32,000 bases of DNA from Promethearchaeota archaeon (lineage in GTDB: Archaea > Asgardarchaeota > Odinarchaeia > Odinarchaeales > JBHLKK01). The notes beneath the pieces were generated by a model. It made no database searches. It saw only the letters and a list, made by a program, of their open reading frames with translations, and was not told the origin of the DNA. Below are positions 2,308-24,839 of the stretch, one piece after another. A program made the translations under genes and the position numbers. Every line of letters starts with the position of its first letter. Position 1 is the stretch's first letter. The stretch lies in the NCBI GenBank assembly GCA_048939465.1, contig JBHLPL010000003.1, forward strand, positions 20,142-52,141, in the 5' to 3' direction.

Positions 2308-2420
2308 TGGTGCGAGGGGTGGGACTTGAACCCACGAAGGCATACGCAAGAGTGTTGTACCACTTTTTCTACGCCAAAGGATCTTGAGTCCTTCCCCGTT
2401 GACCGCTTGGGTACCCTCGC
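2308..2420 (-). tRNA. tRNA-Leu(CAA), CCA encoded, with ~25-nt intron in the variable arm
   Basis: Acceptor GCGAGGG/CCCTCGC+ACCA; anticodon arm AAGGA-CTCAAGA-TCCTT; T arm GTGGG-TTCAAGT-CCCAC; variable region is 41 nt instead of ~15. Confidence 0.93.
2343..2367 (-). other. Non-canonical tRNA intron (relaxed BHB) in the variable arm
   Basis: Central helix CGTA/TGCG, 5' bulge GAA, intron stem AGTG/CACT, 3' bulge TAT. Removal gives a 16-nt arm TGGCG-TAGA-TGCCTTC and an 88-nt tRNA. Confidence 0.72.
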
Positions 2421-21794: not shown

Positions 21795-23321
21795 CTAGGG
21801 GGGTATTCGCTTCTTCATATCATTGAGCTTTGTCCGTATAATCTGGTTTGTAAGTTGTGGATCTACCCTGCCTTTAGTTTTTTTCATAACCTGTCCGATC
21901 AAGTAGTTTACCGCACTTTCCTCGGACAATGCATCTTCTACGGCTTCGGGAAACTCGGTGAAAACCTCATCGATTACTGTATTGATTTCTTCCTCATCGC
22001 TGATTATTGTCAATCCCCTGTCCCTAACGATTTCTGCCGGATGCTTTCCAGTTCGTACCATCTCCGGCAAGATGCTTTTGGCAATCTTCCCACTGATGAC
22101 GCCCTCATCTATCAGACGCAGAAGATCAATGAGACCTTGCGTCGTTATTTTGGATTCGTTTATCTCTAAACCAGTTTCGTTTAGGTTTCTAAGCAAATCA
22201 CCCATGATCCAGTTGCTAATCCGCTTTGAATTCGGATAGAGTTTTACACTTTCCTCAAAGAAATCCGCAAGTTGTTTACTGCCTGTGAGTACAACTGCAT
22301 CATGTTTAGGCAATTTATATTCCTTCATAAGTCGAGTGCGTCTCGCGTCTGGCAGTTCGGGCATTAGTTCTTCGGCTTCCTCGATCATTTCTTTTGTAAT
22401 GTCTATAGGTACCAGATCTGGTTCAGGGAAATAGCGATAGTCCTGCTCCGTCTCCTTGGTTCTCAGCGAAATCGTAATCCTGCGAGCCTCGTCCCAGTGT
22501 CGTGTTTCTTGCTTTACACTCACACCTCTTCTTAGTAATTGCTTCTGCCGAAGTATCTCATACTGAATCGCACGCCTTACCTCTTTGAAAGAAGAAACGT
22601 TTTTGATTTCTACTCTTTTTCCTCCAGCCAGAGATATATTGGTATCACATCTCATTGCTCCAGGTAGACTGCCATCAGATATTCCCAGATGTTCAATAAT
22701 GGAGCGTAATTTGCGAAGGAATGTTTGCGCTTCTTCAGGAGAACGCATATCTGGTTCAGTAACCACCTCTAGGAGAGCCATACCGGCACGATTATAATCT
22801 ATTAGGGCATAAGGAGACGTCTCAATAGAACCGAAATATGTAATGCGGGCCGGATCTTCTTCTAAGTGCATACGACTTATTCTGATTTTTTTGGATCTTC
22901 CATCTATATGTATTGTTACATAGCCGTTTTCGGCGAGGGCAACTCCGCCAACTCTATCATACTGACTTATTTGGAAGTTCTTTGGCATGTCAGGATAGTA
23001 GTAATTCTTCCTGAAAAAGAGCAATGTATTCGAAATCTTGGCATTCAAAGCCAAAGCTGCCATAATAGCATATTTTATGACTTCTTTGTTTACAACAGGA
23101 AGAGAACCAGGAAGTCCTATACAAGTGGGGCATACCAGTGTATTTGGCTCTTTTCCGTGATAATCGGCAGAGCAACTACAGAACAGCTTGGTTTTGAGGG
23201 TTGTAAGTTGAATATGGCATTCAAGACCTATTATTACAGTCTTTTCAACCTTTTTAGGGTCGGTTTCTTCCATTTTGATCCACATTCTCTTTCTTTTTTC
23301 ACCCTTCCTCGTGATTTTCAT
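21795..23321 (-). CDS. gatB: Asp/Glu-tRNA amidotransferase subunit B
   Basis: [60 protein letters not shown] overlap with the gatA stop; alternative start 23273. Confidence 0.97.
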
Positions 23322-24839
23322 AGAGTAGGCTTGATTTTTCTTCTTAGACCTTTTCTTTCAAAAGCATAGGCAACTCTCAGTATAATATTTTCCTTTAGGA
23401 AGTTTCCCATGATTTGTATGCCAATCGGAAGACTGCCATGGTAGCCGCAAGGCATAGAAAGTGCAGGAATACCTGCAAGATTTATTGCTGCCGTATCCAT
23501 ATCTGCCATATACATTTGAAGAGGATTTACTGTCCGCTCGCCTATCTTAAATGCCATTACAGGCGAGGTTGGACCAATCAGTACGTCAAACTTGCTGAAC
23601 GCTTGCTCAAAATCTTGCTTTATCAATGTACGGATTTTAAGGGCCTTCAGATAGTACAGGTCAAAATAACCTGCGGTTAAGGCATATGTTCCCAACATAA
23701 TTCGCCGTGTAACCTCCTGTCCAAAGCCTTCACGCCTACTCTCTGAGAATACTTTATTCCAGTCTCCAATTGCTTTCGCCCTAAGTCCGTATCTTATGCC
23801 ATCATATCTTGCCAAATTGGAGCTTGCTTCAGACATTGCAATAATGAAATAGGTGGGAATTGAATACCTTATGTGAGCCAATGAGACTTCTTCATACGAT
23901 GCTCCCAAGTTTTCCAGAGCATGTATTGCATTCCATACGCTTTTGGCAACTATTTCATCAGTGCCCTCGCCAAAGAATTCTTTCAGAACACCTATTTTGA
24001 TGCCTTTTACATCATCTTTAAGGAACTTCAGATAGTCCCCAGATTTGACTTTGAGGGTCGTACTATCTTTAGGATCGTAACGAGCGACTTCACCTAGAAG
24101 AAGAGCACAGTCGTTTACATCCTTGGTCACTGGACCGATCTGTTCCAGACTACATGCAAACGCAATTAAGCCATAGCGGCTAACCAATCCATATGTTGTT
24201 TTTAGTCCGACAACGCCGCACAAGCTTGCTGGCTGCCTAATGCCTTTGGCTGTACGCTTATCTACGTACAGTTTCCACCAGTATCGCTCCCTAGAGCGAG
24301 AATTGTCTCATCGGCAGCCACTGCAGCAGCACTCCCGCCAGATGATCCACCAGGAACTCTTGAGAGATCGTAAGGATTATACGTCGGCCCAAAATAGCTA
24401 TACTCAGTGGACGAGCCCCTTGCTAATCCTCACCGCGTAAGTGAGGATTTATCGCAAACTCGTCCATATTTGTCTTTCCTATGATTATACCGTCCTGCTG
24501 TTTAATGCGTTCAACCACGGTCGCATCATACGGAGGAATATAATTCTCTAACATATGAGATGCACAGGTTGTTCGGACTCCCAGAGTACATATGTTATCT
24601 TTAAACGCTATTGGAATGCCAGCTAGAGTACCTACGGGTTCATTTCCTCCAATCCTCTTATCGATCTCCTTAGCTTTTTTGGCTGCGGCTTCTCTCGTTA
24701 GGGTTACATACGCATTAATCCTGTCCTCGACTCTGTCTATCCTATCGAAAACGGCCGAAGTGAGTTCTTCTGCGGATATTTCCTGACTGAGTATTTTCTC
24801 CTTGAGTTCATGGGCGGTTAATTCATTCAGTTTTGCCAA
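23318..24839 (-). CDS. gatA: Glu/Asp-tRNA amidotransferase subunit A, three exons: 24839-24451, 24418-24273, 24243-23318 (486 aa)
   Basis: Spliced length 389+146+926=1461 nt=487 codons. Restores [29 protein letters not shown] and [17 protein letters not shown]; GAGGTGA RBS before TTG. Confidence 0.93.
24244..24272 (-). other. gatA intron 2 (29 nt, BHB type)
   Basis: A-CTGTACG-TAGATAAG-CGTACAG-CCAA-AG; helix GTGG/CCAA, bulges AAA and AGG; removal yields GGA A|GC ATT (G-S-I). Confidence 0.88.
24419..24450 (-). other. gatA intron 1 (32 nt, BHB type)
   Basis: A-AATCCTCAC-TTACGCG-GTGAGGATT-AGCA-AG; helix TGCG/AGCA, bulges ATA and AGG, 10-bp exon stem; removal yields GCG AT|G GGC (A-M-G). Confidence 0.9.

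Follow-up and report, generated by a model that had tools for sequence, protein, structure and literature searches.

Why does gatA, the gene for the amidase subunit of the GatCAB tRNA amidotransferase, run into an in-frame stop codon after 138 amino acids (aa) in an archaeal genome in which the remainder of the gene follows intact? The question is posed by a 32,000-nt stretch of contig JBHLPL010000003.1 (here called the window, to which all plain position numbers refer), whose host we place as an uncultured sediment archaeon of the Bathyarchaeia. An earlier note on this DNA had proposed that the frame is broken by an intron recognized through a bulge-helix-bulge (BHB) fold. Our analysis indicates that 24450..24419 is, in all likelihood, a real and maintained BHB intron in the gatA coding sequence. 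Very probably it is an mRNA intron, of a type so far described in print for just one other coding sequence of archaea, and what distinguishes this predicted intron is a 10-bp clamp built entirely of exon bases and placed under silent-site constraint. The parts of the locus on which the argument turns are as follows; L numbers denote loci compared below.

23318..24839, minus strand: gatA, three exons, 486 aa once spliced, flanked by gatC and gatB.
24419..24450, minus strand: gatA intron 1, 32 nt (AAAUCC...GCAAG), predicted to be excised by the splicing endonuclease; its removal restores AUG and the frame.
24457..24466, minus strand: 5' arm of the outer (exon-exon) helix, UGGACGAGUU, within the M-D-E-F codons and invariant in all five lineages that carry the intron.
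24408..24417, minus strand: 3' arm of the same helix, GGCUCGUCCA, within the G-S-S-T codons.
24453..24456, minus strand: exon strand UGCG of the central 4-bp helix, whose partner is the intron AGCA at 24425-24422.
24450..24452, minus strand: 5' bulge AUA, predicted cut 24451/24450 (AU^A), the sole cut yielding the conserved Met.
24418..24420, minus strand: 3' bulge AGG, predicted cut 24419/24418 (AG^G); AAG in L002, L039 and L031.
24426..24449, minus strand: inner intron hairpin, with a stem of 9-10 bp and a loop of 5-7 nt.
24423..24425, minus strand: in-frame TAG that ends the 138-aa unspliced product, from the list of open reading frames (ORFs).

Read on the minus strand, the region around the insert is AUGGACGAGUUUGCGAU / AAAUCCUCACUUACGCGGUGAGGAUUAGCAAG / GGGCUCGUCCACU (exon / 32-nt insert / exon). 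The two exons pair with each other through UGGACGAGUU/GGCUCGUCCA over 10 bp, the final two being U.G, just as the earlier note had described a 10-bp exon stem with two G-U pairs. Within this outer helix, 3-nt bulges on opposite strands, AUA and AGG, are separated by the 4-bp helix UGCG/AGCA (U-A, G-C, C-G, then G.A), which is the core of the strict hBHBh' motif; the bulges, given as AT^A and AG^G, and the helix, given as three pairs plus G.A, had both been drawn in exactly this form. The intron closes with the stem AAUCCUCAC/GUGAGGAUU, whose 9 perfect bp had likewise been recognized and which can be extended to 10 by a U.G pair. The flanking helices of the window measure 10 bp (outer) and 9-10 bp (inner), and the inner one spans 5-10 bp across the five lineages. 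RNAfold, a check suggested at the outset, returned the BHB as its centroid structure, with a minimum free energy (MFE) of -30.4 kcal/mol and z = -5.76; none of 200 shuffled sequences was as stable, and the canonical BHB register lies only 0.6 kcal/mol above the MFE in the window. A whole-genome scan that combined BHB geometry with a coding test ranked this site first, with 23 paired positions. At the sequence level, the putative intron has all the attributes of a strict hBHBh' intron.

The position of the junction is predicted by the established rule that the splicing endonuclease cleaves every 3-nt bulge on the 3' side of its second base (Thompson and Daniels 1990; Xue et al. 2006, as cited in PMC12397907), which would join AU to G. 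Excision of the 32 nt at these points gives GCG AUG GGC and restores both EFAMGSS and the frame, whereas a cut moved by one base would place Ile or Arg at a residue that is Met in 95 of 96 orthologues. Intron 1 interrupts the Met codon of MDEFA-M-GSST, in agreement with the earlier description of a split Met in EFAMGSS. The match to the equivalog model TIGR00132 carries the same signature: exons 1, 2 and 3 cover model positions 2-115, 117-164 and 166-463, so that exactly one residue is absent at each break, as expected if each break divides a codon, that of the Met at intron 1 and that of the catalytic Ser at a second intron considered below. No exon piece reaches the cut-off of 481 bits alone, whereas the three sum to about 589 bits, and removal of both introns yields an uninterrupted 486-aa GatA bearing GGSSGGS and GSDTGGSIRQPA. 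The model is matched at full length across the exons and the amidase signature is intact, which identifies the product as GatA. In the unspliced frame, the ORF at 24839..24423 ends after 138 aa, as had been noted; the accompanying statement that its TAG lies inside the stem was nearly exact, in that the T of the TAG closes the inner stem and its A and G open the AGCA strand.

Could the parts of the gene instead be translated separately? Two Amidase-domain ORFs are called at the locus in every assembly, and split genes are known in Nanoarchaeum, so one might picture the 138-aa and 301-aa ORFs being made as two polypeptides that assemble as GatA. We consider this extremely unlikely. Lacking a start codon, the 48-codon middle exon would be missing from the product, and with it GGSSGGS and the greater part of GSDTGG; intron 2 cuts through the codon of the catalytic Ser; and the 301-aa ORF begins at an internal TTG after SIRQPAS.

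Comparison with related sequences supports a maintained intron. An insert interrupts the identical codon in five lineages drawn from independent assemblies (Logan, ENA, NCBI and JGI): the window; L034-38, with 89% identity to the window over the 138-aa exon-1 ORF; L002, from genome G002 of the same genus as the window; L039-43, with 86% identity over the same ORF; and L031-33, from JGI metagenomes, the most distant carriers, with 65% protein identity. In this order, the introns measure 32, 32, 29, 29 and 20 nt. The inner hairpin of L031 is an unrelated GGCGU/ACGCC, yet both bulges are retained, as are the central and exon helices. In the five-lineage alignment, 95.6% of pair cells are paired; sliding the partners by 1-3 columns lowers this to 35-45%. 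In six pairs, compensatory changes have occurred on both sides. At the fourth central position, L039 has U-A, L031 has G-C and the other three lineages have G.A; the mismatch has been repaired twice independently, through an exon change (GCG to GCU) in L039 and an intron change (A to C) in L031. The canonical register can be adopted by all five and lies 0.4-0.8 kcal/mol from the MFE in four of them; in L002 the distance is 3.9 kcal/mol, with an inner-stem mismatch that the script did not bridge. Truncated "amidase" ORFs ending in EFAINxHL... or EFAIGV are present in the protein collection, and the contigs encoding them carry the intron. The DNA is found in sediment and mangrove metagenomes; identical DNA, including the insert, has been assembled from other mangrove metagenomes with no gap or joint seen, and the closest named homologues belong to Candidatus Bathyarchaeota/Bathyarchaeia metagenome-assembled genomes (MAGs).

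These data bear directly on the possibility that gatA is a decaying pseudogene whose hairpin is an accidental insertion, either a small palindromic element or an assembly artefact. The insert does shift the frame and add a TAG, frameshift artefacts occur in MAGs, and the gatA of a related contig, L044, is damaged at the same place. However, the insert recurs in independent assemblies and samples, its position is kept down to 65% protein identity with the rest of the gene intact, and its structure is preserved by compensatory changes; moreover, gatA is single copy with no asparaginyl-tRNA synthetase (AsnRS) detected, and the insert sequence is unique in the genome and matches no repeat. We judge decay or artefact to be very improbable, and the earlier view of a maintained rather than accidental intron is borne out by the shared codon in five lineages, the compensatory pair changes and the otherwise intact gene. 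A mobile-element origin of intron 1 was considered and rejected: no second copy was found in the genome, and blastn-short gave only chance matches of 10-13 nt.

L044 itself (P0027; JGI 3300002052, SMTZ1_10020353; L044:3350-3420) was examined as a sixth carrier and set aside, as about 42 nt are replaced by about 10 nt, a deletion or other damage. Its gatA reads EFA-ANIESFRL* and resumes at NPLDYSKVPGG in a different frame. The whole first part of exon 2 appears to have been deleted at the intron-1 site, and the explanation may be a pseudogene, an error of assembly or a DNA-level mis-excision. A pattern scan for further carriers (ATGGAYGARTTYGCNAT, a gap of 14-44 nt, GGNTCNTCNAC), run on a metagenome collection that evidently does not include L031-33, gave two matches, both false: one was an intron-less gatA with a chance downstream match and the other an unrelated gene.

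The earlier note went further, suggesting that the exon codons may be selected for pairing and that this could be tested against intron-less orthologues. The outcome is mixed. The peptide MDEF/GSST by itself fixes 7 of the 10 exon pairs if Ser is encoded by UCN, because GAY-GAR is complementary to UCN-UCN, and for these pairs the motif alone suffices. Accordingly, pairing is already partly present in intron-less orthologues (n = 96), with a median of 8/10 exon pairs, at least 9 in 33 of them and all 10 in 6, although none of the 35 archaeal members of this set reaches 10/10. All five carriers have 10/10, and they are nucleotide-identical across ATGGACGAGTTTGC.AT / GGGCTCGTCCACT. The informative codons of the motif are identical at 8/8 positions between the window and L031 and at 7/8 across all five lineages; gene-wide, only 37% of same-amino-acid codons are identical between the window and L031, and 24% are codon-invariant across the five, giving a naive P of ~3e-4 for the motif codon identity. 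The sole variable motif codon, GCG to GCU, is the one that converts G.A into U-A. In the sister genus g2, which is without intron 1, 5/8 motif codons vary inside one genus. We accept a narrower form of the original suggestion, in which RNA structure would hold three wobble positions fixed, together with the Ser codon family that is used.

Since intron-less orthologues already pair at a median of 8/10, the site was pre-adapted for an intron, and this pre-existing complementarity of MDEF/GSST hints at why the intron persists exactly here. The frozen silent sites at intron 1 offer a direct, testable case of a prokaryotic coding sequence constrained by a splicing signal. Two further observations concern the same segment. 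In the mature mRNA (24408-24466, minus strand), the exon arms would persist as a hairpin of 10-11 bp with a loop of 5-7 nt (~-15 kcal/mol), which lies in coding sequence and would have to be unwound by translating ribosomes. In addition, intron-less gatA contigs of other organisms match KTNMDEFA and part from the window at 24451-24454, at most 3 nt from the predicted 5' splice site, continuing with G-GGx-(ACx/UCx) codons.

Another way to obtain a full-length product would be translational bypassing, as in phage T4 gene 60. A ribosome taking off from GCG (Ala) and landing on the GCA of the AGCA strand would read EFA-R/K-GSS without splicing; in all five lineages this GCA is followed by AGG/AAG and GGC UCG UCC in the right downstream frame, and a stable hairpin occupies the gap. 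The GCA is, however, accounted for by its pairing with UGCG, and bypassing would forfeit the Met kept by 95/96 orthologues. It would also leave unexplained two 3-nt bulges exactly 4 bp apart, a 10-bp exon helix with conserved silent sites, and the recurrence of this geometry at intron 2 and in further genes. In T4 gene 60, a stop codon directly follows the take-off codon; there is none in that position here. Bypassing strikes us as scarcely credible, and we retain excision of an intron as the explanation of the insert.

The second interruption of gatA lies downstream:

24244..24272, minus strand: gatA intron 2, 29 nt, splitting the AGC codon of the catalytic Ser in GSDTGG-S-IRQ.

Its BHB is relaxed, with an outer helix of only 2 bp and a central GUGG/CCAA that includes G.A, and its predicted junction is GGUGGAA / GCAUUAGG. 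Intron 2 is also found in sister genus g2 (L008, L011, L012 and L013, 28-30 nt) and in L031, where it is 27 nt long, in frame, and contains TAA. Intron 2 is likely the older of the two, because the sister genus carries it as well. In a set of 96 further gatA loci that includes 35 from archaea (~20 from Bathyarchaeia), intron 1 was found in none and intron 2 only in g2. In a GatA tree, carriers of both introns form one group (support 92/68), carriers of intron 2 only form its sister group (100/100), and the two groups fall together (88/96). Most simply, intron 2 would have appeared first, at the base of the order, and intron 1 later on the branch of the family-level clade, unless intron 1 was instead lost in g2.

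Does the host have the means to remove such introns, and does it need to? Its genome assembly (1.96 Mb, 91% complete) has two matches above cut-off to the EndA family (PF01974), a 204-aa copy with the Tyr/His/Lys residues and a 191-aa copy without the His. The two paralogues are encoded at C90:8954-9568 and on C139, the latter as ORF 1474-2049 of L046. This two-paralogue pattern is that of the (alpha-beta)2 enzymes of Crenarchaeota, two-subunit EndA proteins of broad specificity (PMC5829648, PMC12397907). The RtcB ligase family (PF01139) is matched at two loci. One RtcB gene (C31:2961-5708, minus strand) is a 973-aa open frame in which the model is split into 1-57 and 45-426, ~460 aa apart; the insert is the size of an intein. 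The genome has a single copy of gatA, and a profile search of the 91%-complete assembly detected no AsnRS above the family cut-off. Taken together, the single gatA and the absence of a detected AsnRS suggest that GatCAB is probably the only route to Asn-tRNA, and the doubly interrupted, single-copy gatA is probably essential.

A gene in this position might also be a point of control. If the intron is real, its retention could double as a regulatory switch, with the splicing rate setting the level of GatCAB, and hence the supply of Asn-tRNA, according to growth state or temperature. Two introns placed in catalytically essential codons and a stable clamp that would fold fast, and might be tunable, are compatible with such a role, and in Haloferax removal of the HVO_1309 5' untranslated region (UTR) intron appears important for efficient expression (PMC7714728). 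The sequence indicates no sensor, however, the intron body is unconserved, and similar introns in many unrelated genes fit neutral persistence better. We regard a switch as unlikely, though less so than the alternatives above.

The sequence of events that we favor instead is as follows. About 62 nt of the gatCAB pre-mRNA would fold locally into a strict hBHBh', with exon bases alone forming the outer 10-bp helix, exon UGCG and intron AGCA the central helix, and the intron hairpin the inner helix. The splicing endonuclease, probably of the (alpha-beta)2 type because the genome has two EndA paralogues, would cut after the second base of both 3-nt bulges. RtcB would then ligate the exons, recreating the AUG of EFA-M-GSS and freeing a 32-nt intron. 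Only mRNA from which both introns have been removed would give the 486-aa GatA, the unspliced message leading to a 138-aa dead end. A single gain, later than that of intron 2, would have placed intron 1 in the ancestor of the family-level clade, and since then the flanking silent positions would have been fixed so as to preserve the exon half of the motif.

Several considerations weigh against this account. Cleavage, ligation and the position of the junction are predictions from sequence. Three of the five lineages have a mismatched G.A in the central helix, and in lineages that read ...GCAAAGGG the canonical register is slightly less stable than a competing one that places 5-6 bp between the bulges. 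As the five lineages represent only some three deep branches that are independent, the statistics carry modest weight. Finally, at 91% completeness the MAG does not prove that AsnRS or a second gatA copy is missing.

Other genes of the same genome appear to be interrupted in a similar manner. An insert with BHB geometry is present in kae1/tsaD (25 nt; C69:30130-30154, minus strand; FSQGPG / LGPCLR) and in a gene for a DRG-type GTPase (24 nt; C113:448-471, plus strand; IPRH / KGTEKL). The gene for aEF-2 (C68:10728-12897, plus strand) matches its profile in two pieces, with an insert of ~31 nt in RG / ITI read directly; ahcY is in at least five pieces over two contigs (C118:13-948 and C24:7062-7572, both minus strand), with one junction insert read directly; and in pyrG (C116:16229-17803, minus strand) the match begins only at model position 17. 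The broken aEF-2 and ahcY fit further mRNA introns, as does, probably, pyrG. An ab initio census of BHB motifs, filtered by geometry, open-frame and codon-score tests, supports no intron count: for example, 1949 sites passed at the real length versus ~1950 in wrong-length controls, the signal being swamped because chance BHB-like motifs bridge same-strand gene junctions. What can be used from it is the ranking, with gatA intron 1 first, and the recovery of kae1 and DRG. Elsewhere in the window, Rfam matches a 71-position tRNA model over 110 nt at 2311-2420 (minus strand), although ARAGORN reports no tRNA in the window; a tRNA gene of this length fits an intron at a non-canonical position.

How does the gatA intron compare with known systems? 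Archaeal tRNA introns reportedly contain strict hBHBh' motifs, as surveyed by Marck and Grosjean in 2003, and the geometry is identical here (two 3-nt bulges, a 4-bp helix, cuts after the second bulge base); EndA and RtcB presumably act on the gatA intron as they do on those of tRNAs. Unlike in a tRNA, the exon half of the gatA motif is coding, and pairing is reconciled with the protein through wobble positions and the Ser codon family. In eukaryotes, the HAC1/XBP1 mRNA is spliced by IRE1 and RtcB under stress regulation, IRE1 recognizing a motif of two stem-loops (PMC13149111). That reaction resembles the one proposed here in using an endonuclease with RtcB, in being independent of the spliceosome and in altering an mRNA reading frame; the endonuclease, the motif and the stress regulation differ.

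The closest precedent is the cbf5 pre-mRNA intron of Crenarchaeota (Aeropyrum, Sulfolobales and Desulfurococcales; Watanabe 2002, Yoshinari 2006, Yokobori 2009, PMC2738675). Like gatA intron 1, it is a short BHB intron in an archaeal coding sequence, breaks the frame unless excised, occurs in lineages with two-subunit EndA and has a clade-limited pattern of gain and loss. The present case differs in gene (gatA) and lineage (Bathyarchaeia), in the presence of two introns in one gene and in an outer helix of unusual length (10 bp) to which exon bases alone contribute and which shows measurable silent-site constraint; splicing of cbf5 was shown experimentally, whereas that of gatA is predicted. 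The 5' UTR intron of HVO_1309 in Haloferax volcanii extends the mRNA substrates of the splicing endonuclease beyond tRNA and rRNA, and before it cbf5 was the only example of an archaeal mRNA substrate reported (PMC7714728). It sits in an untranslated leader, however, whereas the gatA intron splits a codon, and the protein needs exact ligation. In the searchable literature, cbf5 (coding) and HVO_1309 (5' UTR) are the only archaeal mRNA substrates of the endonuclease (PMC2738675; PMC7714728), and a search of that literature, subscription journals excluded, turned up no paper describing BHB introns for gatA or for protein genes of Bathyarchaeia.

One consequence is practical. Gene callers split or truncate such genes, as illustrated by the 138-aa and 262-301-aa "amidase" ORFs in every assembly here, and split calls of this kind would bias both the metabolic reconstruction of these abundant sediment archaea and estimates of their completeness. 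For the organisms themselves, gatA and the other interrupted core genes point to the splicing of mRNA by EndA and RtcB as a routine step of gene expression in some Bathyarchaeia. We lean, with some reserve, toward a broader view: this lineage may routinely splice mRNAs with its tRNA machinery, with many essential genes hit, often in their most conserved codons; the exons may be under a second, RNA-structural constraint; and introns may settle where the flanks are ready-made complements, such as MDEF/GSST, in a manner reminiscent of proto-splice sites. If this is true, it would be a prokaryotic counterpart of exonic splicing constraints, and the clamp of gatA intron 1 would be its clearest measurable case.

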